A DNA stretch of 64,000 nucleotides from a bacterium (GCA_016873475.1 VGXI01000001.1:2079-66078); one strand, 5' to 3'; shown: positions 33,834-60,641, counted from the first letter of the stretch. The notes: generated from the letters alone by a model not told the origin. Translations and numbers: made by a program.

Positions 33834-33903
33834 GCCTGGCTCCTCTCGAGTCCGCTGGTCCCCGGAGGCGACGCCGCAGCGCAGCACCGGCACTCGCCCG
33901 GAT

Positions 33904-33933
33904 TTGACCTCGCGCGAATCCGTCTGTTATAAT
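33904..33933 (+). promoter_or_regulatory. Near-consensus sigma70 promoter: TTGACC - 18 nt - TATAAT (with TGT just upstream of the -10)
   Basis: gatTTGACCtcgcgcgaatccgtctgtTATAATctcggcc, about 45 nt upstream of the ATG at 33979. AT-rich island. Confidence 0.55.
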
Positions 33934-33978
33934 CTCGGCCAATTGACACGCGCTCACAACCCCACGCAGGACTGCGGC

Positions 33979-43386: not shown

Positions 43387-44220
43387 CTACATCGCGCCCT
43401 CGCCGCGGACGACCACGCGGAATGTCCGTGCGATGATCTTGAGATCGTTCCCCAACGAGCACTTCTGGATGTAGTAGCGATCCAGGGTGATCTTGCGACG
43501 GATGTGCTCGAGGTCCGTGTCGTAGCCGTTGCGGATCTGCGCCAGGCCGGTGATGCCGGGCTTCACGCCCAGGCGGTCCGTGTAGCCGGGGATCTGCTCG
43601 GCCAGATAGGCGATGATCTCGGGCCGCTCCGGGCGGGGCCCGACGATGCTCATGTCGCCCTTCAGCACGTTCCAGAACTGGGGCAGCTCGTCGATCCGCG
43701 TGCGCCGCATGAGGCGGCCGAGGCGGGTGATGCGTGCGTCGTTCTTCTTGGCGAGCTGGATGCCGTTCTTCTCGGCGTCCGAGACCATGCTGCGGAACTT
43801 GTAGATCTCGAAGGGCCGACCGGGCACGGGAGCGAGGCGGCGGTCGCTGCGGCGCCGCTCCTCGAGCACGCGGATGTTCGTGTGGCGACGGCGGTCACCG
43901 GTGCGCAGGTTCAGGCCGGTCCGCTGCTGGCGGTAGATCACCGGGCCAGGGCTCTCGAGCTTGATCAGGACGGCTAGCGCGAAGAAGAGCGGGCTCAGCA
44001 GGACCAGCGCCAGGAGGGAGACCAGGACATCGAAAGCGCGGATGGCCCGTCGCGTCAGCGGGCTCAGGTAGCGCTCGTTCGGCACGTGACCGCGCTTCTC
44101 GTAGCGGCTGAGCCAAGTCAGCGAGGGATCGCCCTCGGGGTCACTCACCGTGCTGAGCTGGAGCTGTCCCTTGCTGCGGAAGGACTCCAGAAAGTCGTCT
44201 GCCAGGACTGTCTTCTTCAT
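43387..44220 (-). CDS. Bacterial sugar transferase (undecaprenyl-phosphate glycosyl-1-phosphate transferase, PglC/WbaP/EpsL type); initiating enzyme of the EPS locus
   Basis: C-terminal catalytic domain (FEIYKFRSM...LDELPQFWNVLKGDMSIVGPRPE...YIQKCSLGNDLKI) preceded by a TM helix. Start refined to MKKTVL (M78 of the track ORF). An upstream in-frame ATG at 44451 would add a 77-aa extension that runs through a T8 tract, which is unlikely. Confidence 0.75.
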   Translation of the reverse strand: MKKTVLADDFLESFRSKGQLQLSTVSDPEGDPSLTWLSRYEKRGHVPNERYLSPLTRRAIRAFDVLVSLLALVLLSPLFFALAVLIKLESPGPVIYRQQRTGLNLRTGDRRRHTNIRVLEERRRSDRRLAPVPGRPFEIYKFRSMVSDAEKNGIQLAKKNDARITRLGRLMRRTRIDELPQFWNVLKGDMSIVGPRPERPEIIAYLAEQIPGYTDRLGVKPGITGLAQIRNGYDTDLEHIRRKITLDRYYIQKCSLGNDLKIIARTFRVVVRGEGAM

Positions 44221-44693
44221 CGGGGACCACGCCTGTTGTTCGTCACATGGGGGTGCTAGCGCTGACGCAATCAGGGTACCAAGTCGCGCTGCGCCGACAT
44301 GTAAGGGTTCCCACATTCCGAACGAATCCGGGCGGCTAAAAAAAAGCAGGGCGAATCTGAAGCTTCCCCCTGTCTCCTTCACCGACCCGGAGAGCTCGAG
44401 CCATGGCGCATACTCCGCCGCTGCTCTCACCCACCGATCCATGTCTGACACCCGGAATCCGTCCCGGGCAGCGCTGCGCGCCGGGTCTCAGTATATCATC
44501 GCCCTCTGAGATGCCGCAAGGTGGACGGGTGCAATATCACGAAAACAAGAGGAGGCACCCGCGGAAATCCGGCGTTTCAGACAGGAATTGCTGTTTCTGC
44601 GCCCGCTCCGGCTCGCGTTGCGCATTGCGGGTCTGCTGCGGAATGGTGAATCCCGCTGACTGCGGCGCCCCGGCGAACTCTCCGGCGCTCGGC

Positions 44694-45803
44694 TCAGAAC
44701 GCCGTACTGACCCCCAGGCCCGGCTGCCCCGCCGGGGAGGCGAGCAGAGCGAGCTTCGGCACGCGCCCGCGCGGGCGCGAACCCTCTGGATGGCTGAGCA
44801 GCGCATCCATCGCGTTGACCACCCAGAGCCCGCCGGCCAGCGCGCCCAGGAGGTGGAGATCGTCCTTGGCCTGCTGCATGCGCTCCTGCAGGCGGCGCAG
44901 CCGCTCCGCCTCGCCGGCATCCAGACCGTCGGCGCTCAGGAAGCCACGCTCTTCGACGAGCACGCGCTCGTGCAACTCCCGCCGCCGATAGCTGTCCAGT
45001 GACTCCTGCGCGAGATAGGCCCCTGCGGCCAGATAGACACCCGAGCGCCACTGATGCCGGTAGGCCTGGCCCATCCCGGGCAAGATCAGCGACGCGAGCA
45101 CGGCCTTTCCGCGCGAGAGTCGCGGCACCTGCAGGCCCAGTTGCTGGCCGCGAATCTGGGCTTCGAGGGGACGGTTGAACCACCAGGACTCGAGCACGCC
45201 CAGGCCGAGGTAGACCCCCGTCGTCAACAGCTGCCGCTCCCGGTGGCGCTTCTGCTCCGACCAGAGGCCGAGGGCAATGCCGGCCTGACGCTCGTAGGCG
45301 GTCGGATCGTTCGCGTCCTCGGCGAGGGCGCGCCAGCGCTCGTAGTCCTCGAGGGCGGCGTCCCGATCATCGCTGGCCTGCACGATGCCTATCGCCAGGT
45401 AGGCTGCGGTGGCCAACTCCACGGTTCCGTGCAGGCGGCGATTCGAGAGCAGGCTGCCGCCACCGGGGAGCAGGGTGCCCAGGACAGCGCGGCGCGTCGC
45501 ATCGTTCGTCACCAGGGGGTGGCCCTGGGCGTCCCAGCCCAGGCGGGCCTGCCGCGACTCGAAGCCACGGCCGCCCGCGCGCAGGCGGGTGTAGGCCCCG
45601 GCCGCGTTCATGGTGAAAGGCGTCAGCGCGTTCAGAGGCCGGGCACCCTCCAGGCGCACGGGCAGACCGGCCTCGGTGGACAGAACGCCCAGTTCCTGCG
45701 CCGCGGCCGGTTTGCCCAGGAGGGCGGCAAGCGCGAGCAGGAGCGGCGGGAGCGCCAGGAAGAGTGCGCGCTGGGCGCGCCGGGGGGCGGTATCCGTCGT
45801 CAT
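44694..45803 (-). CDS. Secreted/membrane hypothetical protein (signal peptide; C-terminal LILPGMGQAYRHQWRSGVYLAAGAYLA segment)
   Basis: Signal peptide MTTDTAPRRAQRALFLALPPLLLALAALLGKPAAA. Consistent coding bias. Abuts the next gene (1-nt gap). Family not recognised. Confidence 0.45.
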   Translation of the reverse strand: MTTDTAPRRAQRALFLALPPLLLALAALLGKPAAAQELGVLSTEAGLPVRLEGARPLNALTPFTMNAAGAYTRLRAGGRGFESRQARLGWDAQGHPLVTNDATRRAVLGTLLPGGGSLLSNRRLHGTVELATAAYLAIGIVQASDDRDAALEDYERWRALAEDANDPTAYERQAGIALGLWSEQKRHRERQLLTTGVYLGLGVLESWWFNRPLEAQIRGQQLGLQVPRLSRGKAVLASLILPGMGQAYRHQWRSGVYLAAGAYLAQESLDSYRRRELHERVLVEERGFLSADGLDAGEAERLRRLQERMQQAKDDLHLLGALAGGLWVVNAMDALLSHPEGSRPRGRVPKLALLASPAGQPGLGVSTAF

Positions 45804-45804
45804 G

Positions 45805-46824
45805 TCAACTCCGGCCGGCTTCCAGCCCGGGTTCGCCGTCCCGGGCGGGGTTCAGGGTATCGAGACCGCTCCACAGCCGGGCGCCGAGGCGCCAGCGGCG
45901 ATCGAGCCAGACGAGCGCCAGCAGCCCCAGGGCCACGGCGAACCAGAGCGTGGTGGCGCGGATGAGCAGGGTTGCAGCCGCCGCCGGGCCAGCGGGCAGC
46001 CCGGCGCCGCGGCCCAGGAGGAGTGCGAGCGAGCCCTCGGTCACGCCCAGGCCCCCCGGCACGAAGGCCAGCGCGCCCAGGAGCGTGGCGAGCGAGTAGT
46101 AGCCAAGCGCTTGGCCCAGAGGCAAGGACTCGCCGAAGGCCCGGGCGGCGAAGACCAGCGCCCAGCCCTCCCAGAACCAGGCGAGCGCGCTGAGCAGGAG
46201 CAGCAGCGGCAGGTCTCGCGGACGCAGCAGGGCGCGAGTGCTCGCGAGAGCCCGCTCGAGGGACTCGCCGCGCGTGCGCAGCCCGGGGAGGCGCGCCAGC
46301 AGGCCGAGGAGCCAGCGCTCCAGCCCCGGCGCGAGCAGCAGCACGAGCAGGAGGAGTAGCAGGCCCAGGCCGAACAGCCAGGCGAGCCCGCCCTGGCGAC
46401 TGCTGTAGACGCCCAGCGTGGCCAGCAGCAGCAGGCCACCGAGATCCGTCAGCCGCTCGGCCAGAATCACCGGCGCCGTCCGCGCAAGGGCCGCACCCTG
46501 GAGATGCTTCAGGAGGACGGACTTGAAGACTTCGCCGAGCTTCCCCGGCGTCACCGAGAAGGTGAAGCCGCCGACGAAGACGCCCAGGCTGTCGCGGCGG
46601 GGCAGGCGCAGCCCGAGCCGGCGCAGGAAGAACTCCCAGCGCCCGAAGCGCGTGATGTAGTTGCCGAGCGAGAAGGCGAGCAAGAGCGGCAGCCAGAGCG
46701 GATTGAGCCGGCGCAGCGCGCCCAGGGTCGCGCCCAGATCCGCCGCCACGGCGAGGACGATCATCACCAGGAGCCCCGCGGCCAGCGACAGCCAGAGGGT
46801 GCGGCTCAGACCCCGGCTCGCCAT
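45805..46824 (-). CDS. Integral membrane protein of the UPF0104 / lysylphosphatidylglycerol-synthase-TM-domain (flippase-like) family
   Basis: 8 predicted TM helices. FTFSVTPGKLGEVFKSV motif typical of the family. 339 aa. Confidence 0.55.
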   Translation of the reverse strand: MASRGLSRTLWLSLAAGLLVMIVLAVAADLGATLGALRRLNPLWLPLLLAFSLGNYITRFGRWEFFLRRLGLRLPRRDSLGVFVGGFTFSVTPGKLGEVFKSVLLKHLQGAALARTAPVILAERLTDLGGLLLLATLGVYSSRQGGLAWLFGLGLLLLLLVLLLAPGLERWLLGLLARLPGLRTRGESLERALASTRALLRPRDLPLLLLLSALAWFWEGWALVFAARAFGESLPLGQALGYYSLATLLGALAFVPGGLGVTEGSLALLLGRGAGLPAGPAAAATLLIRATTLWFAVALGLLALVWLDRRWRLGARLWSGLDTLNPARDGEPGLEAGRS

Positions 46825-46827
46825 CGC

Positions 46828-47841
46828 TCAGCTGTTCCTCAGCAGGATGAAGCTTGTCAGCAGCGTGGCGATCGTCGTCAGGATGCCGAGGTTCGAGCGG
46901 ACCAGCGCCATGACCGCCGTTTGCCGCGGCACGAAGATCGTGTCGCCGGCCCGCACATCGGGGTTCTGGCTGTCGTCGGCATCGGCAAGGTACTCGCTGA
47001 CGTTGATCTCCAGGCGCAGCAGGCTGCCGTCGGGGCGCGGGCGGAGCAGCACCACCTTGCCCATGTTCGCGTCGCCGAGCGGCCCGCCGGCCTGCAGGAT
47101 GAAGCCGAGCACGTCGCTGGCGCCGGCCTCCAGGCGGTAGATGCCGGGGTGGAGCACCTGGCCGAAGACGTAGATGCCGTCCGATCCCACGTAGCCGGCC
47201 GGGTTCACGGGCCGGCGCGGCACCTCGACGGTCTCGCCGGGCGCCAGCGCTGGTAGATCGAGGACGCCCTCCTGCGCGGTGAGCGCCTCGAGGTTGTAGG
47301 TCTCGAGGACCTGCTGGCCGTCGCGGAGGCGATAGACGCGCACGTGGCTGAGGTCGCCGTCGGGAGCGACGCCCCCCGCCTCGCGAATCGCGCGCCAAAC
47401 ATCCGGCAGCGGCCAGACGGCGTAGCGGCCCGGCGTGGTGACGGCGCCGATCACATAGAAGGCCTTGCTGTTGTAGGCCGTCAGCTCGAGGGAGACGCGG
47501 TTCACGGTGCGGTGGAAGACCTGGATGCGCTCGACGATCTCCGCCTCGATCTCGGGCGCCGTGCGCCCGCCGGCCTGGACGTCGCCGATCAGCGGCACCG
47601 TCAGGCGACCGTTCTCATCGACGGTCAGGCTGCGATCCAGGTCGGGAACCTGCCAGACCCGCAGGGCGAGCTGGTCACCGGGGCCGAGTCGATAGACCGG
47701 CGGCTCGCCCTGGGCAAAGCCGTGGGTTGGCCCCGCCGTCGCAATCAGGAGCAGGAGGAGGCAGAACGAAGCGGGTCGGAGACAGCGCAGCGCGCAGGCG
47801 CGAACCAAAGCGCGCGCGCAAGTGGACTTGCGTTCAGGCAT
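46828..47841 (-). CDS. Polysaccharide biosynthesis/export protein (Wza-like: Poly_export + SLBB domains)
   Basis: YRLGPGDQLALRVWQVPDL Poly_export signature. SLBB-like repeats. C-terminal TM. Start refined to MPERKST (M51 of the track ORF). Confidence 0.75.
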   Translation of the reverse strand: MPERKSTCARALVRACALRCLRPASFCLLLLLIATAGPTHGFAQGEPPVYRLGPGDQLALRVWQVPDLDRSLTVDENGRLTVPLIGDVQAGGRTAPEIEAEIVERIQVFHRTVNRVSLELTAYNSKAFYVIGAVTTPGRYAVWPLPDVWRAIREAGGVAPDGDLSHVRVYRLRDGQQVLETYNLEALTAQEGVLDLPALAPGETVEVPRRPVNPAGYVGSDGIYVFGQVLHPGIYRLEAGASDVLGFILQAGGPLGDANMGKVVLLRPRPDGSLLRLEINVSEYLADADDSQNPDVRAGDTIFVPRQTAVMALVRSNLGILTTIATLLTSFILLRNS

Positions 47842-48045
47842 CTTCCCCCCCGAGTGGAATTCCAAGGCACAGTAAGCAGCGCTACAGACAGTGTCTAGTG
47901 CTTTGTCGGACACTCCTTCGCAACGCAGCGATAGCCCGGGGCGCACCAGGACACCGGCCGCTCCTTCGCGGCACCCCGAGACACTTCTCAAACAGGAGGG
48001 CCAACTCCTTATTCGCTTTTCTTACCGCCGGATCCGTCCCGCCGC

Positions 48046-48074
48046 TTGCATGGAGATCACAGGGCCCTTACAAT
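48046..48074 (+). promoter_or_regulatory. Sigma70-like promoter TTGCAT - 17 nt - TACAAT upstream of the PEP-CTERM gene (approximate coordinates)
   Basis: cgcTTGCATggagatcacagggcccTTACAATtatggg, about 60 nt upstream of the ATG at 48138. Confidence 0.4.
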
Positions 48075-48137
48075 TATGGGCTAAGCTGACCCGCCTCGCG
48101 GGTGCGCGATACCCCACTCTTCGTTGAGGATGGCACT

Positions 48138-48485
48138 ATGCTGAAACGCGTTCTGATCCTGTCCAGTCTGCTCATGCTTCTCGCTCTCAGCGCCAGCGCT
48201 GGCGTCGATCAGATCATCACCGGCAGCGGGGAGTTCGGCAACGAGCACTTCGGTACCGGCGAGATGCCGACCGACAACCAGTCCGATCTCTTCGTGAAGG
48301 GCAACAGCCAGCCCAACGACCAGGGCGATAGCGGCGGCCCGCTGGACTCGCCGAGCGGCCCGATCGATCCCCAGGGCGAGCCCCCGGTCGGCGACAGCGC
48401 GCCGGTCCCGGAGCCGGCCACGGGCATCATGCTCGGGATGGGCGTTCTGGGCCTGGCCCGTCTGATTCGCCGCAAGGCCGAGTAG
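48138..48485 (+). CDS. PEP-CTERM sorting-domain protein (putative exosortase substrate)
   Basis: Signal peptide MLKRVLILSSLLMLLALSASAG. Low-complexity Gly/Asp/Pro region. C-terminal VPEPATGIMLGMGVLGLARLIRRKAE (PEP motif + TM + basic tail). Confidence 0.75.
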   Translation: MLKRVLILSSLLMLLALSASAGVDQIITGSGEFGNEHFGTGEMPTDNQSDLFVKGNSQPNDQGDSGGPLDSPSGPIDPQGEPPVGDSAPVPEPATGIMLGMGVLGLARLIRRKAE

Positions 48486-48507
48486 AGCCTAGCCACGCAC
48501 GCGAGGA

Positions 48508-48547
48508 GAGGCCGCTTCCCGAAGGGGAGGCGGCCTTTCGGCATTCT
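48508..48547. terminator. Intrinsic terminator-like hairpin (11-bp GC stem, GAAG loop) followed by a T-rich stretch; between convergent genes (approximate coordinates)
   Basis: aggccgcttccc-gaag-gggaggcggcct then TTTCggcaTTcTc. Sits between the PEP-CTERM gene stop (48485) and the ligase gene stop (48560). Confidence 0.5.
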
Positions 48548-48559
48548 CGGCGGAGCGCC

Positions 48560-50092
48560 CTAGCGCTCGGCCTCGAGCTGGGCCTGGATCAGGTGCTTGC
48601 GGATCTTGCCGGAGCTGGTGCGGGGCAGCTCCTCGAAGAAGCGGGCGGCCTGGGGCTGCTTCCAGTGGGGCAGTCGCCGCTTCAGGTGGTTCAGCACGGT
48701 CGCCTCGTCCAGCGCGGCCGCCGGCCCCGGCACCAGGCAAACCACCATCTTCTCGCCGAGGAGGTCGTCGCTGACGCCGACCACCGCGCAGGCCAGCACC
48801 CCCTCCAGCTCCTGGACGATGTCCTCGATCTCCTTCGGGTTGATCCGGAAGGCCCCGCTCTTGATCATGTCCTTCTCCCGGCCGACTACCCAGAGGTAGC
48901 CCTCCTCGTCCGCCCGGGCGAGATCCCCGGTCCAGAGGCGACCCTCGCTGTCGATCACCTTCGCCGTCTCGGCCGGGTCCTGCCAATAGCCCGCCATGAT
49001 GTTCTCGCCCGCGGCGACGATCTCGCCCGTCTCGCCCGGGGGCACGGCCCGGCCGTCCTTGTCGAGCACGGCGAGCGTGACGCCCGGGATGCCGCGGCCG
49101 ATCGAACCCGGCTTGCGGTCCACGTCCGCGGGCGGCAGGTAGGAGAGCCGCGCGGTGCCCTCGGTCTGCCCGTACATGACGATCGGCTTCGCCTGGGGCA
49201 GCATCCCGCGCAGGCGGGCCAGGCCAGCGGGCGGCAGGGCGCCGCCGGCCGTCGCGAAGTAGCGCAGGCTCGGAATCCCCGTCTCGGGCAGACGGCTCCT
49301 CTGCATCAGGATGTTGAAGGTCGAGGCAACGCCGGGCAGGCCGGTCACCCGTTCGCGCAGGGCGGTGTCGAGGACGGTGTTCGGAAAGCCGAAGCGGTTG
49401 TCGACGACCAGGCAGCCCCCCACCGCCGCGTGCGTGAGCAGCAGCGAGTGGCCGTACGAGTAGTAGAAGGGCAGCAGCACGAGGCAGCGCTCGCTCTCGT
49501 CCAGGCGCAGGTACTCGTTGATCGAGTCGGTGTTGGCGATCAGGTTGCGCTGGGTCAGGCAGACGCCCTTCGGCGCCCCCGTGGTGCCAGAGGTGTAGAG
49601 GATCATCGCCAGGTCGCCCGCCGCCGGCCCCTGCAGGTCGAGCGGCTCGCCTTCCGCCGCATCGAGCAGACCCGTCTCGCCCGGCAGCGGCGTCTCGAGG
49701 GGCGCGTCCAGCAGGATCCGCGGCGGGAGCAGGGTCCGGTCCAGCCCGGCCGCGAAGCGGCGCAGGAACTTCTCCTGGGCGACCAGCAGCGCTGGCGCGC
49801 AGTCGGCCAGCACCTTGTTGACGTAGGCCTCGTCGTTCACCGGATTGAGCGCGACGAGCACCGCGCCCAGGCGCATCACGGCGAAGTAGATCTGCGCGTA
49901 GGCGGGCGAGTTCTCCCAGAGCAGGGCGACGCGATCGCCCGGCTGGATCCCGAGCGCCTGGAGCCGCGCCGTCAGCGCGCCGGCGCGGCGGGCGAGGGTC
50001 GCGTAGGTCCAGCGCTCGTCGCCCTGTACGATGGCCTCGCGCCCGGCGTGCCTGCACTGCGTTGCGGTGAGATACTCCCAGACCGCGTTCAT
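48560..50092 (-). CDS. AMP-dependent acyl-CoA/acyl-ACP ligase (exosortase/EPS-locus-associated type)
   Basis: AMP-binding motifs LYTSGTTGAPKGV, YGQTEG, GDLARADEEGYLWVVGREKDMIKSGAFRI, SSGKIRK. Start refined to MNAVWEY (M15 of the track ORF). Confidence 0.8.
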   Translation of the reverse strand: MNAVWEYLTATQCRHAGREAIVQGDERWTYATLARRAGALTARLQALGIQPGDRVALLWENSPAYAQIYFAVMRLGAVLVALNPVNDEAYVNKVLADCAPALLVAQEKFLRRFAAGLDRTLLPPRILLDAPLETPLPGETGLLDAAEGEPLDLQGPAAGDLAMILYTSGTTGAPKGVCLTQRNLIANTDSINEYLRLDESERCLVLLPFYYSYGHSLLLTHAAVGGCLVVDNRFGFPNTVLDTALRERVTGLPGVASTFNILMQRSRLPETGIPSLRYFATAGGALPPAGLARLRGMLPQAKPIVMYGQTEGTARLSYLPPADVDRKPGSIGRGIPGVTLAVLDKDGRAVPPGETGEIVAAGENIMAGYWQDPAETAKVIDSEGRLWTGDLARADEEGYLWVVGREKDMIKSGAFRINPKEIEDIVQELEGVLACAVVGVSDDLLGEKMVVCLVPGPAAALDEATVLNHLKRRLPHWKQPQAARFFEELPRTSSGKIRKHLIQAQLEAER

Positions 50093-50102
50093 GGCCGGTC
50101 GT

Positions 50103-50348
50103 CTAGCCGAGCTTGCCCTGGACGAAGCCGGCAACCTTGGCGATGGAGTCGAAGTTGTCGGGCGTCAGCTCGCTGTCCTGGACGCCGATCCCCCACTCCG
50201 ATTCGACGAACTCCAGCAGCTCCATGATGCCCGTGGAGTCGATGACCCGCGTCTCCATGAAGGAGTCGCTGTTCTTGAAGTTGGGGTCGTCCTTGCCCGC
50301 CAGGAAGTTCTCGACGATGAACTGGCGGATGGCGCTTTCCATGCTCAC
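50103..50348 (-). CDS. Acyl carrier protein (phosphopantetheine-binding)
   Basis: 81 aa with an IDSTGIMELL phosphopantetheine-attachment motif. Sits between the amidotransferase and the ligase. Confidence 0.8.
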   Translation of the reverse strand: MSMESAIRQFIVENFLAGKDDPNFKNSDSFMETRVIDSTGIMELLEFVESEWGIGVQDSELTPDNFDSIAKVAGFVQGKLG

Positions 50349-50356
50349 GGCCTACC

Positions 50357-52354: not shown

Positions 52355-53310
52355 CAGGCGCCGCCTCCCGCGTTGGGGCTCTGCTCCTCGAGCCGTTCGA
52401 GGATGTCCCGGTACAGGAGCAGCTCCAGCTCGTCGCGCCGCTCGGCCATGCGCGCGAGCAGCGCTTCGAAGCCCGCGAGCTGGGGCAGGTCCCAGGGGTC
52501 GAGGTAGATGTTCACGTAGTTGCCGTAGGCCAGCGCCGCCTCGGCCGTCTCCCAGAGCAGCGCGCAGAACTCCTGCGCCGTGTCGTGGCTCCACTTGTAG
52601 AAGGGATGCCCCACGTGCAGGCTGTGCCAGGTGTCGAGCACGGTGAGCGGGTGCTTCGGGCAGGTCGTGAGCGGAAACTCCCAGATGCCCTGCGGTCCGC
52701 GGAAGGGCCGGCCGCCCGTCGGCGAGCCGGTCATCAGCGTGGAGGAGTCGAAGCGGTAGCCCAGCTCGGCGAGGATGCCATAGATCTCCGGCGTGAAGAG
52801 GTCCTTGAAGTGCGGGATGCGGCAGCCCGCGCAGTCCACGCCCATCACCTGGCGGATCACCTCGTGGGCCCGAGCCACTTCTTCCTTCTTCTCCTCGCGC
52901 GAGATGAGGCGGAACTTGCGGCCGGGGTTGATCTCCTCGTTGTCCGGGTGGCTGTAGGTGTGGTTGACGATCTCGTGCCCGTCCTCGAGCAGGGCCTTGT
53001 GCAGGTCCGGGTAGCGCTCGACCCAGAGACCGACCACCGCGAAGCTGGCTCGGATGCGGTAGCGCTTGAGCAGCGCGACGACGTAGGGGTAGGCCTCGAC
53101 GTCCTTGCTGTAGTCGCAGTCGAAGCTGAGCGTGAGCGCGCCGCGGCCGCGCAGCCAGCCGAGGGGCTTCTGCTCCGTCAGCCGCATGAAGGACCTGAAG
53201 AGGCGGCGCGGCGCCAGCACCGTGGTGGCCGCCATCAAGGGCCGCGACTCGTGGTGCGCGACCACGAAGCGCTGCAGGCGGCTGAGCGACGGCATCTCGG
53301 TGGGCTTCAT
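52354..53310 (-). CDS. Polysaccharide deacetylase (NodB/CE4 family)
   Basis: LTLSFDCDYSKD...FAVVGLWVERYPDLHKALLEDGHEIVNHTYSHP matches NodB-homology motifs. Start refined to MKPTEMPS with GAGGAAG RBS. Confidence 0.7.
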   Translation of the reverse strand: MKPTEMPSLSRLQRFVVAHHESRPLMAATTVLAPRRLFRSFMRLTEQKPLGWLRGRGALTLSFDCDYSKDVEAYPYVVALLKRYRIRASFAVVGLWVERYPDLHKALLEDGHEIVNHTYSHPDNEEINPGRKFRLISREEKKEEVARAHEVIRQVMGVDCAGCRIPHFKDLFTPEIYGILAELGYRFDSSTLMTGSPTGGRPFRGPQGIWEFPLTTCPKHPLTVLDTWHSLHVGHPFYKWSHDTAQEFCALLWETAEAALAYGNYVNIYLDPWDLPQLAGFEALLARMAERRDELELLLYRDILERLEEQSPNAGGGA

Positions 53311-53323
53311 CGGGCTTCCTCGT

Positions 53324-54850
53324 TCAATCTCCGCGCGCCTGGCCGCGGTGGATGGTGGCGCGCAGCGGAGCGCCGGCGGCGAGCGCGAGGCGCCAGCGCC
53401 CCGCACCGGCCGCAGTGCCGGCCCCGCGCAATTGCAGGTTCCCTGCCAGCTCCAGCTCGATCTCGCCCGCCGCGGCCAGTGCGAGCGCCCAGACGCCCTC
53501 GCGTTCGGGGGCAACGGTCAGCTCCCTCAGCGGGCCGCGCAGCGCGCTCAGGCCGCCGCGCAGCTCGAGCTGCGCCTCCGGCCCCGGATCGAGCAGCTCG
53601 AGCGCGAGCGCGGGCGGCGCGTCCGCGGCGCCCGGCAGGAAGCGCGTCGCCCGGTAGCGGCGGTTGCAGCGAATGGCGCGCGTGAGATAGGGAGGCAGCG
53701 TGTAGTCGCGATACTCGCCCGCGTTCCCGGCCAGGCCGTCCTCGGCCGCGCGCAGGATGTTGTAGCACTCCCGCGCGTTCACGAAGTGCAGGCGCCAGCG
53801 CTCGCCGTCGTTGTACTCGCCGCAGAGGGTCTCGAACATCCGCGCCGCGCCTTCTCCGAGCAGCGCGTCGCGGTGGCGCTCGGGTGCCCCGTGCGTGTGC
53901 ACCTTGACGACGATCCACTCCGGCCGCCCCGCCACGTGGATGCCCGTGTTCACCCAGCCGCGCACGCGCGCCGGCGTGCCCGGGCCTTCGCCGGTGACGT
54001 CCGCGTCCTCCACGCTGAAGAAGGGAAAGCGCCGCCGCGCGCGCAGGCCGATGGGCCCCGTGATCAGCGCGAACTCGTCCGGCGCCGGCCGGCGGCCGGC
54101 CTGCATCAGCGGTCCGTCGTCGTAGCTCTTGGGGGCGCGCGGGTCGTCGATGGCGCGGTAGAGCGCGTTCACGCGCCGCGGCTGCGCGGCGTAGAGGCTG
54201 GGGAAGGTGAAGTCCCCGTAGCAGCCCGTCTCGCGCAGGATCGTCAGCTCGTCGTCGACGCCGCAGTACTCGGCCCGGCTGTTGTCCAGGGCCCAGTTGC
54301 CGTGGATGAAGCCGTAGGCCCGCCGCACCGGATCGCCCTGCATCAGGAATACGCCGTAGTCGGCGTAGCGCTCGAGCGTCTCCTCGAGCAAGGCGCGCAG
54401 GCTCTCGCTCGTGTCGTGGTCGTGGTGCAGGTGCAGCTCCGTCTCGCCGACGCCCTGCCAGTCCATGGCGGCCAGGCCAAGGAGGTACTCCTCGCGGAAG
54501 TAGTGCGGCGGGAAGAAGAAGCCGTGCTGCGGGTGGCGGCCCTCGGCGTCGGCGAAGCGGCGCGCGAGAGGCGGATAGAGCTCGGTCCAGGCGGCGAAGC
54601 GCGCGCGGGCGCGCCCCAAGTCGGCGCCCTTGGTGCCCGGCTCGAAGTGGTCGACGAAGCAGAAGAGCAGATCGCGCGTGGTGCCCGGCGGCACGGCGGG
54701 CGGCCGGCCGCCGAGGGCGAGGCGCCGCTCGAGCCAGGGGGCGAGCCAAAGATCGAAGCGCAGCAGCGCCGCCCGGCGCGGCTGGACGAGGCCGAAGAGG
54801 CCGGCGCCGGCGCGGGCCGCGGCAAGGAGCGCCGCGCGCCGCGCGCTCAT
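53324..54850 (-). CDS. Conserved hypothetical protein of the EPS locus (His-rich HLHHDHDT/HGNWALDN motifs; possible metal-dependent hydrolase)
   Basis: 508-aa ORF with consistent coding bias between the deacetylase and a glycosyltransferase. Family not recognised from sequence alone. Confidence 0.4.
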   Translation of the reverse strand: MSARRAALLAAARAGAGLFGLVQPRRAALLRFDLWLAPWLERRLALGGRPPAVPPGTTRDLLFCFVDHFEPGTKGADLGRARARFAAWTELYPPLARRFADAEGRHPQHGFFFPPHYFREEYLLGLAAMDWQGVGETELHLHHDHDTSESLRALLEETLERYADYGVFLMQGDPVRRAYGFIHGNWALDNSRAEYCGVDDELTILRETGCYGDFTFPSLYAAQPRRVNALYRAIDDPRAPKSYDDGPLMQAGRRPAPDEFALITGPIGLRARRRFPFFSVEDADVTGEGPGTPARVRGWVNTGIHVAGRPEWIVVKVHTHGAPERHRDALLGEGAARMFETLCGEYNDGERWRLHFVNARECYNILRAAEDGLAGNAGEYRDYTLPPYLTRAIRCNRRYRATRFLPGAADAPPALALELLDPGPEAQLELRGGLSALRGPLRELTVAPEREGVWALALAAAGEIELELAGNLQLRGAGTAAGAGRWRLALAAGAPLRATIHRGQARGD

Positions 54851-56037
54851 CGCCGGGCCTCCGGGCCCGGCCCGTTCTGGGCCGCCAGCGCCTGTTCGAC
54901 GCGCCGCCAGTTCTCCTGCCAGGTGTGCCGCTCGCCGACGCGCCGGCGCGCCGCGGCGCCCAGGCGCGCCCGCAGTGCGGGATCCGCGAGCAGCGCGCGC
55001 AGGGCCGCCGTGAGCGGGGCGGGAGGGTCGGCGTCGCGCGCGGCGAAGAGGCGGCCCTCGAGGCCGTCGTCGAGGGCATCGCGCAGAGGCGGCAGGTCGG
55101 GCGCGAGCACCGGCCGGCCCAGGCTCATGTACTCGAAGACCTTCATCGGCGAGCCGTAGTCGTTGCTATCGGGCATGGCGCAGAGGTCCATCGCGGCGAT
55201 CCAGGCCGGCAGCTCGCGATGGGGCAGCGCGCCCGTGAGCAGCGCGTGCTGGGCGAGACCGGCAGCCGCGAGATCCGCCTCGATGCGCGGGCGCTCGGGG
55301 CCGTCGCCGACAAGCAGCAGCTTGCCCGGCAAACCCTCCGCGCGGCAGCGGCGCAGGGCCTCGACGAGACGATCCACGCCGTGCCAGGGGTAGAAGCCGC
55401 CCACGAAGCCCACCACCGGCTCGCCGGCGAGCCGCGCGGGCAGCGCGGCCGGCGCCTGCTTCGCCGCCGCTTCCCACCAGCCGCGGTGGACGGCATTGGG
55501 CATCAGCAGGATGCGCGCCTCGGCCACGCCCTGCGCGCGCACGCGCTGGACGAGGCGGCTCGAGACGGCGGCGACGAGCGCGGCCCGCCGAAAGAGCGCG
55601 GCCTCGCTGCGCCGCGCCTGGCCCATGAGCAGCCCGCTGCGCCGGCGCACGAGCGGGTCGGCCACCGTGTAGTTCACCTCGAGCACGTGCGGGATGCCGA
55701 GCCGCGCGGCCAGCCGCCCGCCCGCGCTGCCGAAGAAGGCATAGCGCTCGTAGAGCAGCTCGGGCTGGAAACGCGCAGCGGCCGCGGCGAGGCGCCCGGC
55801 GAGCCGGCGGTCGTAGGCCTGCTCGGCCAGCTCGAAGAGCAGCTCGGGGGCGCGACGCGCGAAGCGCGCCGCGAGGCCGGGCCGTCCGCCGGCGGCGGGC
55901 GGCGCATAGGGATCGGCGCCCGGCGGGCCGACGAGCGCCACCGCGTGGCCGGCCGCGCGCATCGCGTCCACCATGCCGCGCAGGTGGACGGCCTCGACGC
56001 CGTGTCCCTGGGTCCGGTGCAGGGCGAGGATGCGCAT
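54847..56037 (-). CDS. Glycosyltransferase family 4 (GT-B, group 1)
   Basis: C-terminal GT1 motifs (VGFVGGFYPWHGVDRLVEALR...LLLVGDGPER...SLGRPVLAPDLPPLRD). 4-nt overlap with the upstream gene. Confidence 0.75.
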   Translation of the reverse strand: MRILALHRTQGHGVEAVHLRGMVDAMRAAGHAVALVGPPGADPYAPPAAGGRPGLAARFARRAPELLFELAEQAYDRRLAGRLAAAAARFQPELLYERYAFFGSAGGRLAARLGIPHVLEVNYTVADPLVRRRSGLLMGQARRSEAALFRRAALVAAVSSRLVQRVRAQGVAEARILLMPNAVHRGWWEAAAKQAPAALPARLAGEPVVGFVGGFYPWHGVDRLVEALRRCRAEGLPGKLLLVGDGPERPRIEADLAAAGLAQHALLTGALPHRELPAWIAAMDLCAMPDSNDYGSPMKVFEYMSLGRPVLAPDLPPLRDALDDGLEGRLFAARDADPPAPLTAALRALLADPALRARLGAAARRRVGERHTWQENWRRVEQALAAQNGPGPEARR

Positions 56038-56038
56038 G

Positions 56039-57244
56039 TCAGGCGCGTCCGCGCTCGGCCCGCATGGACTGGATGAGCGCGTGCATCTCGTCGGCGACGT
56101 CCTCCCAGCGGCGGCGGGCGGCGCCCGCGCGGCGGTCGTCGAAGCGAAAGCCCGCCAGCATGCTCAGCATCGCGTCCGTGAGCGGCCAGACCTCGCCGGG
56201 CGGTACCAGCAGGCCGCTCTCGCCCTCGACGACGATCTCCGGAATCCCCCCCACGCGCGAGGCGATCACGGGCCGCCTGGCCGCCAGCGCCTCGACGAGC
56301 ACGTTCGGGTAGCCCTCCATGCGACTGGGCAGGACGAGGCAGTCGCAGGCGCCCAGCCAGCGGGGGATCTCGGCGTGCGGCACGGGCGGCCGTAGCTCGA
56401 CCTGATCGCCCATCCCGAAGCGCGCAATGCGATCGCGCAGCTCCGCTTCGAGATTGCCCGCGCCGATCATCACCAGGCGCGCGCGGCGGCGCTCCATCTC
56501 GGGGATTGCCCGAAAGGCCTGGAGCAGCGTCGTCAGGCCCTTGACCGGCCGCAAGATGCCGACGAACAGGAAGAGGAAGGGCTCCTCGGGCAGACCGAGC
56601 TCGCGCCGGCTCGCCGCGCGCTCGCGGGGCGTGAAGCGCTCGAGGTTGACGCCGTTGGGCATCACGGTGACGCGCTCGGGCGGCAGGCCGAGCTGGGCCA
56701 GGCGATCGCGCAGCGCGCCGCTCACCGCGACCACGCGGTCGGCGCCCCTGAGTGCGTCCAGCGTGAGTCGGCGGCGCGCGAAGCCGCGCGTGAAGAGGTT
56801 CACGTCCGAGCCCCGCACCTTGATCAGGAGCGGCAGCCCGTAACGCTTGGCCAGGCGCATGGCGGCATAGCCGTCGGGAAAGGCGTAGTGCGCAAGCACG
56901 AAGTCGGCCGGCGCCGCCGTGTGCAGGCGCGCGAAGTGCGGCGCGACGCCCCACAGCAGGAAGTCCCCGTAGCAGAAGCGCAGCACGCCGGGCGTCACGA
57001 TGTGGCGCGGGTACTCGACCGCGAAGCCCTCGATGCTGTCGGTGGCCGGCACCGCGCTGAAGGGATAGCGGCTCTTGCCGCGCAGGAAGGGCGGCACCCA
57101 GGGCAGCGGCGCCAGCACACGCAAGTCGTAGCCGTGGCGCTCGCGCAGCGCTTGCGTCTCCTGCAGCACGAACTGCCCGCGCATCCGCTCGATGGCGTTC
57201 GGGAAGAGGTTCGTGATGACGATGCCGCGCCCTGCGCTCTCCAT
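56039..57244 (-). CDS. Glycosyltransferase family 4 (GT-B, group 1)
   Basis: FLFVGILRPVKGLTTLLQAF...LVMIGAGNLEAEL...EGYPNVLVEALAARRPVIASRVGGIPEIV. Start refined to MESAGRGIVITNLF (M77 of the track ORF). Confidence 0.75.
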   Translation of the reverse strand: MESAGRGIVITNLFPNAIERMRGQFVLQETQALRERHGYDLRVLAPLPWVPPFLRGKSRYPFSAVPATDSIEGFAVEYPRHIVTPGVLRFCYGDFLLWGVAPHFARLHTAAPADFVLAHYAFPDGYAAMRLAKRYGLPLLIKVRGSDVNLFTRGFARRRLTLDALRGADRVVAVSGALRDRLAQLGLPPERVTVMPNGVNLERFTPRERAASRRELGLPEEPFLFLFVGILRPVKGLTTLLQAFRAIPEMERRRARLVMIGAGNLEAELRDRIARFGMGDQVELRPPVPHAEIPRWLGACDCLVLPSRMEGYPNVLVEALAARRPVIASRVGGIPEIVVEGESGLLVPPGEVWPLTDAMLSMLAGFRFDDRRAGAARRRWEDVADEMHALIQSMRAERGRA

Positions 57245-57279
57245 GGCTCCTGCTTCGTTCGCTGCTGTCCGGGCCCCGG

Positions 57280-59466
57280 CTAGTCCCGGACGAAGGCCCC
57301 CGGCTCGGTGCCGAGAGCGAGAACCTGCGCCGCAGCACCCTGCCGCTGGATCTCGAGGCGGACGGCGCCGCCCGGCTCCCGCCGCAGCCGGCTGGCCTGG
57401 AGGCCCCCGGCCGGATCGGCCAGCAGGCTCAGGCAGAAGCCGGTCGCCGGCGCGCTGCCGGCCAGGCGCCACTGGAGGGCGGGCCGCCGCTCGCCGTAGC
57501 TGGGGGAAACCCAGCCCGCGGGGCCTTCCTCATCCCCCATCCGGAGGGCGCTGTCAAGTCCCTCTGGCAAGAAGACTTGCAGCCAGAGCCGGGGTTCGGC
57601 CGCCTCGCCGAGGAGCAGGCCGGCCGCTCCGAAGCCCGGCAGGGCGCAGTCGGCGGCCGGCGCCGGGCCCGGCAGAATGCGCAATTCCGGCGCCGCTTGC
57701 CAGAGGAGTGCCACGGGCAGGGGCGTCTCGGCCCGCCAGGCGTCCAGGACCAGGAGCAGATCCGGCGCCAGCAGGGCCAGCCGGCGCCCCACCGCCACGG
57801 GTCGGCCAGCGGCGTCGCGGTCCCCCCGGCGGCGGGCACTCCAGTCGAGCAGGGCCCCGGGCCACGCGGGCGCGCTCTCGGCGAGGTCGGCCTCCGAGCG
57901 CCGCGCCCAGCCGAAGCGGTCCGGCGCCGGCAGGGGCTCCGCCGGATCGCGCTCGCCCACCCGGAGCAGGTTGTGCGCGGCCGCCCCGCGGAAGTGATCC
58001 CGCCAGCGCTGTGGCCCGTTGTAGAGGAAGGTGCCGGCCTCGACCAGCAGCGGCCGACCGCCGAAGGCGGGCGAGAGCGAGAGCGCGTCGGCGTGCCCGT
58101 GCCCGGCGCCGCCGCGGCCCATCGGCCCGGCCTTGACGAGGAGCTGCGCGCCGGGCAGGCCGGCCGCCCCCGCCGGCGCCCCCCAGCGCGCCGTGTGCCA
58201 GCCGGCGGCCGGGAAGCGCTCGACCTGCAAGCCCGGCGCCTCCGCGGGCTGGGCGGCGGGCGCAGCCCCGGCGCCCCCCAGCCAGAGCGCCTCGCCCGCC
58301 AGGGGCCAGGCCGCCGCCTCGGGGACCGTCGCGCCGTAGCGGCGCGCGGCAAGGGCGAGCAGGCCGCGGGCGTCACGGCGCGGGCCGTCCTCGAGGCGCA
58401 GCACGCGGCCGCTGTCGTCGTCGCCGAAGGGGACGAGCAAGCCGTCCGGCGCCGTGAGCGCGGCCAGGGGCCGGCACATCGCGGCCAGGGTGGGCAGCCA
58501 GTCCTCGGCGGCGGGATCCCCGGCCGCGCGTCCCCAGAGCAGGCACTGGAGCAGGAAGTCCAGCACGAAGCGGTGGTAGTCGACGGCCTGCTCGGCGAGC
58601 ACGCCGTCGGCGAGCAGCTGCAGCGGCAGGGGGCGCACGAGGATGGCCCGCCCGCGCGCCTGCCAGTCCGCCGACTCCGGAAAGACCGGCAGGGCCGCGC
58701 CCAGGCAGTAGAGCGCCGCCGCCTCGCCGAGCAGGTGGTTGTTGGCGACGGCCTTCTCCGAGAGGTGCCCCGCCGTGAAGCGGGCGTTCTCGTGCAGGCA
58801 GGCTGCGAGCAGGACGAGCGCCGGCTCGTCGCGCGCCGCGGCGGGCAGGAGCTGCCAGGTCCAGAGCAGCGAGAAGATGCGCAGCCCGCTCTCCAAAACC
58901 GCGATCCAGTGCGGCCCCCAGCCGAAGGGGTTCGCGGCGCGAAAATCGGCGATGAGGGCGAGCGCCGCCGCCGCCCGGGCGCGCGCGGCCGGCGAGTCGG
59001 ATGGCGCGAGGCGCGCGGCGGCCGCCAGCGGCGGGGCCGCCTGCAGGCGACCCAGTTCCCAGAGGCCGCGCACGTCGCCGTGCGCCGTGAAGTCACTGGA
59101 CGAGTAGGCCTCCGCCGGCAGCAGGGGCCAGCGGCCACCGCCCGGCACCTGCCGCCAGTCCAGCGGCGAGGCGGCGGCGAGACGCCCGTCGAAGAAGGGC
59201 CAGCGGCCGGCGAGGGCGTCCTCGGCCAGGGCGGAAAGCCCGCGATCGGCGCCTGGCTGGGCGGCGATCGCCGCCAGGGCCGCTTCATCATGCAGAGGCC
59301 GAAAGGCTGCCGCCAGGGCCGCAGCGTCAGGAACGCCGCCTGGAGAGAAGGTGGGCAGCAGGGCGTCGCCGGCGAGGGCGGCGGCCGGCGGCGGCACGGC
59401 AGGCCGGGGCGCCAGGCGCCCCCGCCAGCGGAGCGCGCTGCGGCGCAGGCGGCCGAGTCCGCGCAT
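57280..59466 (-). CDS. Heparinase II/III-like (alginate-lyase fold) family protein
   Basis: Alpha/alpha-toroid N-terminal region (WGPHWIAVLESGLRIFSLLWTW...NNHLLGEAAALYCLG) and a C-terminal beta-sandwich. Common in EPS/capsule loci. Confidence 0.55.
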   Translation of the reverse strand: MRGLGRLRRSALRWRGRLAPRPAVPPPAAALAGDALLPTFSPGGVPDAAALAAAFRPLHDEAALAAIAAQPGADRGLSALAEDALAGRWPFFDGRLAAASPLDWRQVPGGGRWPLLPAEAYSSSDFTAHGDVRGLWELGRLQAAPPLAAAARLAPSDSPAARARAAAALALIADFRAANPFGWGPHWIAVLESGLRIFSLLWTWQLLPAAARDEPALVLLAACLHENARFTAGHLSEKAVANNHLLGEAAALYCLGAALPVFPESADWQARGRAILVRPLPLQLLADGVLAEQAVDYHRFVLDFLLQCLLWGRAAGDPAAEDWLPTLAAMCRPLAALTAPDGLLVPFGDDDSGRVLRLEDGPRRDARGLLALAARRYGATVPEAAAWPLAGEALWLGGAGAAPAAQPAEAPGLQVERFPAAGWHTARWGAPAGAAGLPGAQLLVKAGPMGRGGAGHGHADALSLSPAFGGRPLLVEAGTFLYNGPQRWRDHFRGAAAHNLLRVGERDPAEPLPAPDRFGWARRSEADLAESAPAWPGALLDWSARRRGDRDAAGRPVAVGRRLALLAPDLLLVLDAWRAETPLPVALLWQAAPELRILPGPAPAADCALPGFGAAGLLLGEAAEPRLWLQVFLPEGLDSALRMGDEEGPAGWVSPSYGERRPALQWRLAGSAPATGFCLSLLADPAGGLQASRLRREPGGAVRLEIQRQGAAAQVLALGTEPGAFVRD

Positions 59467-60641
59467 CAGGCCTCCCTGACGAAGGGGGCAAAGGGCTCGG
59501 GCAGGTTCTCCCCGTGAAAGCGATGGGCCAGGCGCTGCACGATGCGGCGCGCGGCCTGGCCGTCGCCATAGGGATTCACGGCGGCCGCCATCGCGGCGTG
59601 GGCGGCCGGATCGTCGAGCAGGCGGCCCAGTTCGCGCACGATGCGCGCGGGGTCGGTGCCCACGAGGCGCACGGTGCCGGCCTCCACGGCCTCGGGCCGC
59701 TCGGTGACCTCGCGCATCACGAGCACGGGCACGCCGAGGCTCGGCGCCTCCTCCTGCACGCCGCCGCTGTCGGTAACGATCGCGTAGGAGCGCTTCATCA
59801 GGTGCACGAAGGGCGCGTAGTCCAGCGGCTCGCAGAGGACCACGTTCGCGAGCCCGCCGAGGATGCGCGCAGCCGGCTCCTTCACGTTCGGGTTCGGGTG
59901 CACCGGGTAGACGAGCAGGCAGTCCGGGTGCGAGGTCGCGATCGCCGCCAGCGCGGCGAAGGCGCGCTCCAGCGGCGCGCCGAAGGACTCGCGGCGGTGC
60001 GCGGTCATCAGGAGCAGGCGGCGGCCCGTGAGATCGGGCAGCGCGGGCAGTCCGGGCGGCGCCTCGCGGCGCGCGGCCACCGTGAGCAGGGCGTCGATCA
60101 CCGTGTTGCCCGTGACGAGGATGTCGTTGCCGTCCACGCCCTCGCTGCGCAGGTTCCAGGCCGCCTTGTGCGTGGGCGCGAAGTGGAGGTCGGTGAGCAC
60201 GCCGGCGAGATGGCGGTTCTTCTCCTCGGGGAAGGGGCTGTAGCGCTGGCCCGTGCGCAGGCCGGCCTCGACGTGCCCGACGGGGATCTTCAGGTAGTAG
60301 GCGGCCAGGGCGCCGATGAAGGTGGTCGTCGTGTCGCCGTGGACGAGCACCATGTCGGGCGCCAGCTCGCCGAAGGCGCGCTCGAGGCCGCGCAGGGCGC
60401 GCTCGGTGACGTCGAAGAGGCTCTGGCCGGCCTGCATGATGTCCAGGTCGCGGTCGGGCGCGATGTCGAAGAGGCGGAAGACCTGGTCGAGCAGCTCGCG
60501 GTGCTGCGCCGTGGCGACGACGAGGGGCCGCCAGCGGGCCGGCGCGGCCTTCAGCTCGCGGATGACGGGGGCCATCTTGATCGCCTCGGGGCGCGTCCCG
60601 ACGACGACGGCGATGCTGACGGGGGCCTTGCTCGTGCTCAT
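59466..60641 (-). CDS. wecB: UDP-N-acetylglucosamine 2-epimerase (non-hydrolysing), WecB/MnaA family
   Basis: VVVGTRPEAIKMAPVI...VHGDTTTTF...HVEAGLRT...DSGGVQEEAPSLGVPVLVMRE signature. Start refined to MSTSKAPVSIAVVV (M21 of the track ORF). TATAAG -10-like element upstream. Confidence 0.85.
   Translation of the reverse strand: MSTSKAPVSIAVVVGTRPEAIKMAPVIRELKAAPARWRPLVVATAQHRELLDQVFRLFDIAPDRDLDIMQAGQSLFDVTERALRGLERAFGELAPDMVLVHGDTTTTFIGALAAYYLKIPVGHVEAGLRTGQRYSPFPEEKNRHLAGVLTDLHFAPTHKAAWNLRSEGVDGNDILVTGNTVIDALLTVAARREAPPGLPALPDLTGRRLLLMTAHRRESFGAPLERAFAALAAIATSHPDCLLVYPVHPNPNVKEPAARILGGLANVVLCEPLDYAPFVHLMKRSYAIVTDSGGVQEEAPSLGVPVLVMREVTERPEAVEAGTVRLVGTDPARIVRELGRLLDDPAAHAAMAAAVNPYGDGQAARRIVQRLAHRFHGENLPEPFAPFVREA

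Follow-up and report, generated by a model that had tools for sequence, protein, structure and literature searches.

The subject of this analysis is an 18-kb gene cluster within a 64,000-nucleotide stretch of DNA (GCA_016873475.1, VGXI01000001.1:2079-66078), referred to below as the window, from an uncultured bacterium of the Fibrobacteres-Chlorobi-Bacteroidetes (FCB) group. The cluster is a real and tightly conserved locus for the synthesis and export of a sugar polymer. Its gene content favors, with a probability that we put at roughly 60%, a lineage-specific surface-glycan module of the exopolysaccharide (EPS) type with a PEP-CTERM partner protein, whose product would be a glycan containing N-acetylmannosamine (ManNAc) that is de-N-acetylated, re-acylated and amidated. 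Spurious frames dominate raw lists of open reading frames (ORFs) in the window because its G+C content is so high (~72%); the coding frame of each gene was chosen by third-position GC across 43.3-61.7 kb, which left one clear frame per gene, and the gene starts agree with calls made independently on a Logan contig of identical sequence. Ten of the locus proteins are exact matches of NCBI proteins within MBM4116162-MBM4116173 (locus tags FJ251_), of which eight bear generic names and two are called "hypothetical protein".

The genes are arranged in two minus-strand transcription units that face a small plus-strand gene for the PEP-CTERM protein lying between them (Table 1). The long operon runs in the order WecB, a heparinase-like protein, two family 4 glycosyltransferases (GT4 a and b), a 508-aa protein, a deacetylase of carbohydrate esterase family 4 (CE4), an AsnB homolog, an acyl carrier protein (ACP) and an AMP-forming ligase. 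The second unit encodes a Wza-like exporter, a UPF0104 membrane protein and a DUF5683 protein, followed after 473 nt by the priming transferase. Frame calls and Pfam/NCBIfam domain scans recovered, each in its place, all the genes named in an initial annotation of this DNA, from whose list the DUF5683 gene was absent. Its remark that many genes are joined by overlaps of 1-4 nt needs trimming: with consensus starts there are three such overlaps (WecB/heparinase-like, 1 nt; GT4/508-aa protein, 4 nt; deacetylase/AsnB, 1 nt), the other same-strand junctions being gaps of 1-35 nt except for the 473 nt before the priming transferase.

Table 1. Genes and sequence elements of the locus and its surroundings. 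Model scores are in bits; a figure after "vs" is the cut-off of the model.
Feature	Position	Strand	Matches and remarks
WecB, non-hydrolysing UDP-GlcNAc 2-epimerase, 391 aa	59466-60641	minus	TIGR00236 478.9 vs 210; PF02350; NCBI name agrees
Heparinase II/III-like protein, 728 aa	57280-59466	minus	PF16889 44.9; PF07940 81.1
GT4 glycosyltransferase a, TuaC-like, 401 aa	56039-57244	minus	PF00534, PF13439; TuaC 159.7; stp2 123.6 vs 409; stp3 122.6 vs 442
GT4 glycosyltransferase b, 396 aa	54847-56037	minus	PF13692, PF00534; stp3 128 vs 442; stp1 31.1 vs 316.65
Conserved hypothetical protein, 508 aa	53324-54850	minus	no Pfam/NCBIfam family match; predicted (β/α)7 barrel
CE4 polysaccharide deacetylase (Polysacc_deac_1), 318 aa	52354-53310	minus	PF01522 72.1 vs 23.1; TIGR03006 56.2 vs 276.2; NodB 45.3
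AsnB-type glutamine-dependent amidotransferase, 665 aa	50357-52354	minus	TIGR01536 461.7 vs 267; TIGR03108 364.0 vs 816.9; PF00733, GATase_7
Acyl carrier protein, 79 aa	50103-50342	minus	weak ACP matches (AmcB 43.1, OlsHI-ACP 40.3); NCBI name "acyl carrier protein"
AMP-forming acyl ligase, 510 aa	48560-50092	minus	PF00501, PF13193; TIGR03098 377.2 vs 592.35; NF004837 366.4; TIGR01733 230.2 vs 317.4
GC-rich hairpin followed by TTTC	48510-48535		between the convergent PEP-CTERM and ligase genes; read from the sequence
Small PEP-CTERM protein, 115 aa	48138-48485	plus	PF07589 25.9 vs 20.7; TIGR02595 18.9 vs 16
Conserved sigma-70-like promoter of the export operon	47869-47897	minus	-35 TAGACA, 17-nt spacer, -10 TACTGT
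Wza-like outer-membrane polysaccharide export protein, 337 aa	46828-47841	minus	PF02563 70.5; SLBB domains; TIGR03027 88.0 vs 180; TIGR03028 107.3 vs 262.65
UPF0104 / LPG_synthase_TM flippase-like membrane protein, 339 aa	45805-46824	minus	PF03706 151.8; TIGR00374 86.4 vs 43.2 (passes)
DUF5683 protein, signal-peptide-like N-terminus, 369 aa	44694-45803	minus	PF18935 35.0 vs 26.7
Short monotopic priming phosphoglycosyl transferase (Bac_transf), 277 aa as called	43387-44220	minus	PF02397 218.9; TIGR03025 283.4 vs 295.55; TIGR03013 226.6 vs 393.35
Polytopic membrane protein, divergent from WecB, 296 aa	60779-61669	plus	no Pfam/NCBIfam match; predicted fold CysZ sulfate permease / choline-transporter-like
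Choice-of-anchor-D / HYDIN-like Ig-repeat protein	61666 to past 64000 (61666-64000 in the window)	minus	FlgD_ig C-terminus; runs out of the window end
Secreted protein, 167 aa	42808-43311	plus	convergent with the priming transferase
Secreted-looking protein with FlgD_ig / T9SS-type C-terminus	33745-35838	plus	
Secreted-looking protein with FlgD_ig / T9SS-type C-terminus	27164-29020	minus	
FGE-sulfatase and GH32/GH43-like protein, ~1300 aa	21260-25180	plus	
Secreted-looking protein with FlgD_ig / T9SS-type C-terminus	15827-18439	minus	
Secreted-looking protein with FlgD_ig / T9SS-type C-terminus	14226-15737	plus	

The PEP-CTERM protein reported within the locus is genuine, as it passes the thresholds of both PF07589 and TIGR02595. 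It consists of a signal peptide with a hydrophobic N-terminus, a stretch of ~70 residues rich in Gly, Pro, Asp, Ser and Gln, and a VPEPATG-transmembrane-RRK tail (VPEPATGIMLGMGVLGLARLIRRKAE) that has the features of the sorting signal, and it is the single ORF of the window with such a tail. The entire module is present, in the same order and on the same strands, in at least seven other assemblies (loci L005/L014, L007, L008/L012, L009/L013, L010/L090, L011 and L091), which are labeled as a metagenome-assembled genome (MAG) of Candidatus Krumholzibacteriota, a MAG of Candidatus Latescibacteria and several entries called "bacterium", one of them a 3.6-Mb contig; marker identity in these relatives falls from 83% to 57%. 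The PEP-CTERM gene occupies the same slot and strand in the window and five relative lineages (L005, L007, L008, L009 and L011). Its VPEPATG-hydrophobic-RRK tail is almost invariant, being near-identical in L005, L008 and L009, and the mature part is 42-53% identical. The export unit is likewise conserved: the DUF5683 gene is syntenic in all relatives (38-70% identity) and the priming transferase in L010 (74% identity). An alignment of the region upstream of wza from six relatives (window block 47866-47914) places most of the invariant columns in the two hexamers of the sigma-70-like promoter. The hairpin between the PEP-CTERM and ligase genes, to which a comparable GC-rich hairpin corresponds at the same position in L010, is probably a bidirectional terminator. 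We also considered a sigma-54 promoter before the PEP-CTERM gene or wza, as in Aquincola pepA, and rejected it, since no GG-N10-GC could be read there and the wza element has sigma-70 spacing. An Rfam scan of the window matched no riboswitch or other RNA element, and a consensus promoter/terminator scanner yielded nothing useful in such GC-rich DNA.

The enzymes of the long operon retain the motifs expected of their families. WecB, encoded by its first gene, and AsnB, whose N-terminal Cys is intact (MCGIAG), are each 71-93% identical to the copies in relatives, and the ACP (62-92% identity) has the phosphopantetheine-site motif IDSTG. In L010 AsnB is split into two ORFs, which may reflect a frameshift or a long-read assembly error. 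The 318-aa deacetylase belongs to CE4 by its Pfam score and by its HTYSH (HxxxH metal motif) and FDCD motifs. The ligase, encoded by the last gene, keeps YTSGTTGAPKG and SGKIRK; it is more likely an acyl ligase than an amino-acid adenylation domain, as judged from its sub-threshold TIGR01733 score, and reads PFYYSYG at the site where amino-acid adenylation domains carry FDxS. Given these acyl-type scores and the replacement of FDxS, a free alpha-amine nucleophile is not predicted. Hydropathy reveals neither transmembrane segments nor signal peptides in WecB, the heparinase-like protein, the 508-aa protein, the deacetylase, AsnB and the ACP; the ligase and one of the GT4s each show one hydrophobic stretch, which is marginal. 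The heparinase-like protein, whose gene is syntenic in relatives (50-73% identity), is therefore probably cytoplasmic and might have an epimerase- or lyase-like role at the polymer level. In the same way, the lack of such segments in the biosynthetic enzymes implies that modification takes place in the cytoplasm on nucleotide- or lipid-linked intermediates. In this respect they resemble NodB, ArnD and VimE and differ from the periplasmic PgaB and PelA.

The gene context of the 508-aa protein family offers the strongest evidence here for a place of this operon in the exosortase-associated world, even though its families are not those of the exosortase A (XrtA) system. The 508-aa protein has no match in Pfam, NCBIfam or PDB sequences, so that it could not be assigned to any known sequence family and only a fold search was informative. 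An AlphaFold2 model built from 119 sequences is highly confident (predicted local distance difference test, pLDDT, 96.7; predicted template modeling score, pTM, 0.95), and a Foldseek search of the PDB with this model returned insect chitin deacetylases as the only significant matches (E 8e-5 to 9e-4). The confident model and these fold matches make it the second enzyme of the deacetylase/glycoside-hydrolase superfamily in the locus, predicted to be a cytoplasmic (β/α)7 barrel with a core of ~380 aa. It has no detectable sequence similarity to the CE4/CE18/GH57 (β/α)7-barrel superfamily, e.g. HP0310, insect chitin deacetylases, ArnD, Agd3, PgaB and PelA. Its conserved motifs (DHFEP, HLHHDxD, HGNWALDN and KVHTHG) are His-rich, unlike the canonical CE4 set; its cytoplasmic location sets it apart from PgaB, PelA and Agd3; and a C-terminal β-sandwich is added, which among its homologs is confined to close relatives of greater length (500-543 aa).

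The family has more than 700 homologs and is present in 493 GTDB species from many phyla. Its gene neighborhoods were sampled in 80 loci of other species, using only Pfam-verified neighbor clusters, as greedy longest-ORF clustering was noisy from antisense shadow ORFs. A classic CE4 gene adjoins the family gene in 13 of the 80 loci and lies within 10 kb in 28, and an NCBIfam-verified exosortase lies within 10 kb in seven, one of which passes the XrtA cut-off. PEP-CTERM tails occur in three of these loci outside the clade of the window. In Alteromonas the family gene is flanked by genes for a PgaC-like GT2 and for a deacetylase resembling PgaB, and downstream proteins pass the cut-offs for PepA (169 vs 80) and PrsT (313.5 vs 312.2). 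Two further members are found near a TIGR03098-like ligase: with an ACP and AsnB in Lysobacter sp. A03 (L028, 1774-6314), and with an ACP in a Thiotrichales MAG (L055, 3765-5563). Both ligases score ~460 for TIGR03098, still under 592, which points to a group of such ligases and ACPs in EPS loci that may be broader than the curated model covers.

Haft et al. 2006 (PMC1569441) defined the XrtA/PEP-CTERM EPS system, which is also described by NCBIfam/TIGRFAM models (TIGR03098, TIGR03108, TIGR03006, TIGR03087/03088/04063, TIGR03013 and TIGR03027). The initial annotation had matched the locus to this exosortase-associated module. What stands of that match is a polysaccharide locus, a PEP-CTERM protein within it, and XrtA/PEP-CTERM-system models as the best or near-best NCBIfam matches for seven proteins, namely the ligase, AsnB, the deacetylase, both GT4s, the priming transferase and the exporter. 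Membership in the exosortase-associated subfamilies did not stand up. TIGR03098, TIGR03108, TIGR03006 and TIGR03087, the models proposed for checking it, all score under their trusted cut-offs, which is one half of what the initial annotation had named as its refutation, and the scores of the XrtA-system models as a whole reach 10-64% of their cut-offs. The ligase fits a generic fatty-acyl-CoA ligase model (NF004837) almost equally well, AsnB fits the generic TIGR01536 better, and the priming transferase and the exporter fail TIGR03013 and TIGR03027 (Table 1). The GT4s reach 31.1 vs 316.65 (TIGR03087), 123.6 vs 409.05 (TIGR03088) and 128.0 vs 442.05 (TIGR04063), two TPR proteins of the window fail the PrsT model TIGR02917 (62.3 and 29.3 vs 312.2), and the 508-aa protein has no match to any NCBIfam model. 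The locus is therefore not part of the XrtA type 1 gene set. The equivalog cut-offs of this system are narrow, as GT4s encoded beside a true XrtA (locus L020, 311.8 vs 208) also fail stp2/stp3; the GT4 comparison is thus a weak one, and failed membership leaves room for a working link to an exosortase. The interpretation in the initial annotation is partly supported: the locus is a clade-specific variant of a PEP-CTERM-associated polysaccharide locus, which would work like exosortase-associated EPS loci from outside the type 1 set.

Set beside the XrtA system, the locus shares the placement of a PEP-CTERM protein inside an EPS locus, as well as the AMP-ligase, ACP, AsnB, CE4 deacetylase, GT4s, Bac_transf primer and Wza-type exporter. 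It differs in that exosortase, EpsI, PrsT and Wzc were not found in the 64 kb, that AsnB, ACP and ligase are contiguous, that its scores lie far under the cut-offs, and that its host belongs to an FCB-group candidate phylum rather than to the Proteobacteria. Its additional components are the UPF0104 and DUF5683 proteins, the cytoplasmic heparinase-like protein, the second deacetylase-fold enzyme and the CysZ-like membrane protein.

Taken together, these components would form the following pathway. WecB would supply UDP-ManNAc, the monotopic phosphoglycosyl transferase would prime undecaprenyl phosphate, and the two GT4 enzymes would lengthen the glycan. At the cytoplasmic face the CE4 deacetylase and the second deacetylase-fold enzyme may remove N-acetyl groups. 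The AMP-ligase would charge the dedicated ACP with a carboxylic acid, more probably an acyl group than an alpha-amino acid, and this group would re-acylate the freed amine through a putative transferase, while the glutamine-dependent AsnB homolog would turn a carboxylate into a carboxamide. The UPF0104 flippase-like protein might flip the product and the Wza-like channel export it. The secreted, low-complexity PEP-CTERM protein, cut by an exosortase encoded elsewhere, might then associate with or attach to the glycan.

A plausible function for this protein, by analogy, is PepA-like retention of EPS at the cell; Aquincola PepA turns soluble EPS into cell-bound EPS (PMC9850573). The EPS cluster for floc formation in Zoogloea and Aquincola, with PepA and PrsT, likewise encodes a small secreted PEP-CTERM protein with its EPS genes and is further linked to our locus by the 508-aa family in the Alteromonas PepA/PrsT locus. 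The protein of the window differs in its length of 115 aa and in its score for the PepA model (20.4 vs 80), PrsT is lacking, and no -24/-12 motif can be read upstream, the export promoter being sigma-70-like.

A number of findings, besides the sub-threshold XrtA scores, weigh against a PEP-CTERM-linked glycan module. A hidden Markov model (HMM) built from seven NCBIfam-verified exosortases and searched against six-frame ORFs (E<=10) had no match in the window or in the close relatives. HMMs for Wzy_C, GNVR/Wzc and Wzx (Polysacc_synt), built from related loci, likewise had none in the window, which agrees with the initial annotation that exosortase, Wzc, Wzx and Wzy lie outside it and leaves the Wza-type protein as the only component present of a Wzx/Wzy- or Wzc-dependent capsule/EPS pathway. 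The locus contains no recognizable N-acyltransferase and no uronic-acid dehydrogenase to supply the carboxylate for AsnB. The closest relative, L010 (83% marker identity, on the 3.6-Mb contig), has the module without the PEP-CTERM gene: alignment of its positions 16290-16590 with 47842-48560 of the window shows a clean indel of ~450 nt that takes out this gene and keeps the hairpin and the wza promoter. The PEP-CTERM protein is therefore a conserved but dispensable partner. Finally, most secreted proteins of the window end in C-terminal domains of the FlgD_ig / type IX secretion system (T9SS) type rather than in PEP-CTERM.

Other searches around the module had the same outcome. When the remaining genes of the window were scanned with Pfam and NCBIfam, neither EpsI nor a chain-length determinant was found, PrsK and PrsR not having been specifically searched. 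Precomputed Pfam annotation of the flanks read in six relatives (L007-L010, L090 and L091; 10 kb on each side of the anchor gene) included no exosortase, and in L090 and L091 there was none in the 10 kb past the module on either side. A literature search on Krumholzibacteriota and exosortases found nothing. That an exosortase is encoded elsewhere in the host genome we infer solely from the conserved PEP-CTERM tail.

The alternative that fares best, while still unlikely, is an ordinary capsule- or O-antigen-like locus with no tie to protein sorting, in which the PEP-CTERM gene would be a passenger between two operons. The full module without this gene in L010, the lack of an exosortase near the module in the DNA read from relatives and the prevalence of FlgD_ig/T9SS-type C-termini all agree with it. 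Moreover, ligase, ACP and AsnB are also known from polysaccharide loci unrelated to sorting. What it has to contend with is that six lineages, with marker identities as low as 57%, have the gene in one slot and on one strand, together with a sorting tail that is nearly invariant; nor does it sit well with other phyla, in which the 508-aa family recurs next to exosortases that were verified and to genes for PEP-CTERM proteins, PepA and PrsT.

A second alternative is that the product is a short anchor or linking glycan rather than a bulk polymer, making the module the exosortase-side analogue of the T9SS Wbp/Vim pathway with a modified amino sugar as acceptor. In that case the two deacetylase-fold enzymes, the ligase/ACP donor and AsnB would build a modified amino sugar that is covalently joined to the PEP-CTERM mini-protein. 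We consider both forms of this idea doubtful, and more so than the passenger gene. The precedent is the T9SS linking sugar 2-N-seryl-3-N-acetylglucuronamide, which accepts sorted proteins and is made by deacetylase, acyl or aminoacyl transfer and AsnB steps; Veith et al. 2020 speculated that a similarly modified sugar is produced by PEP-CTERM loci and serves exosortases as acceptor (PMC7468200). Here, too, a deacetylase would free an amine, an acyl group would be added and an AsnB homolog would amidate a carboxylate, a logic parallel to VimE, VimA and PGN_1234. A WecB/WbpI-type 2-epimerase and GT4 enzymes stand alongside in both systems, the modifying enzymes are all cytoplasmic by hydropathy, and Wzy, Wzc and Wzx were not found in the window. 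The T9SS product serves sorted proteins, and cargo domains of the T9SS type are numerous in the host lineage. On the other side, the Wza-type exporter suggests export of a polymer, the acyl donor is a ligase with an ACP instead of a FemAB/VimA-type transferase, and that ligase is acyl-like (TIGR01733, PFYYSYG) rather than amino-acid-activating. The window also contains no Wbp genes (WbpA/B/D/E), the sorting signal is PEP-CTERM and not a T9SS C-terminal domain, and the PEP-CTERM gene is missing in L010.

The remaining alternative, a bona fide XrtA type 1 PEP-CTERM EPS locus with its exosortase, EpsI, PrsK/R/T and Wzc encoded at other chromosomal sites, has very little probability left: the seven top matches and the PEP-CTERM protein speak for it, but it is largely refuted by the scores, including those of the generic-looking ligase and AsnB and of the PrsT candidates. 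Also against it are the lack of any XrtA-system name on the ten NCBI proteins looked up, the failure of the UPF0104, DUF5683, heparinase-like and clade-specific membrane proteins to match any XrtA-named model in the scans, and the lack of an exosortase both in the window and in the flanks read from relatives.

In the flanks read (L007-L010, L090 and L091), synteny runs past WecB to the 296-aa membrane protein and then to the choice-of-anchor-D protein. The family of the 296-aa protein has 28 members among 5.8 billion proteins and lies beside the module wherever neighboring DNA was read. The protein was considered as a cryptic exosortase or as the missing polymerase and set aside, since Pfam and NCBIfam gave no match, its sole CxG-type Cys is not conserved, and its model is CysZ/choline-transporter-like; as far as this predicted fold goes, it is transporter-like and neither an exosortase nor Wzy. 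The choice-of-anchor-D protein keeps its place beside the module in L007, L008, L010 and L091 and may therefore be functionally linked to it, e.g. as a glycan-associated surface protein. It is one of at least five secreted-looking proteins of the window with a FlgD_ig/T9SS-type C-terminus (Table 1), a set that includes GH32/GH43-like, BNR/sortilin-like and choice-of-anchor-D proteins. These many C-termini, against a single PEP-CTERM tail, suggest that the organism relies mainly on a T9SS-like sorting signal. On the other side of the locus, the 167-aa secreted protein is syntenic in L010 (74% identity); it belongs to no Pfam or NCBIfam family and has a faint match to a cell-wall-binding protein. 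Further away, a ~1300-aa protein has an unusual architecture, in which GH32/GH43-like domains accompany an FGE-sulfatase (formylglycine-generating-enzyme-like) domain.

The acceptor to which exosortases join PEP-CTERM proteins has been an open question since 2006. The present locus is compact and strongly conserved, its sugar-modifying enzymes form a defined set with one minimal PEP-CTERM protein as partner, and a natural variant without the PEP-CTERM gene exists among its relatives, so that the role of the modified glycan as acceptor could be tractably studied here. Were neither the acceptor nor the 508-aa idea to hold, it would be one more polysaccharide locus of an uncultured phylum. With the 508-aa protein, a large deacetylase-fold family (493 species) that has so far gone unannotated comes into view, recurring in EPS and exosortase loci, and the counterpart of the T9SS linking sugar, if true, would be the first concrete candidate for the acceptor chemistry of exosortases.

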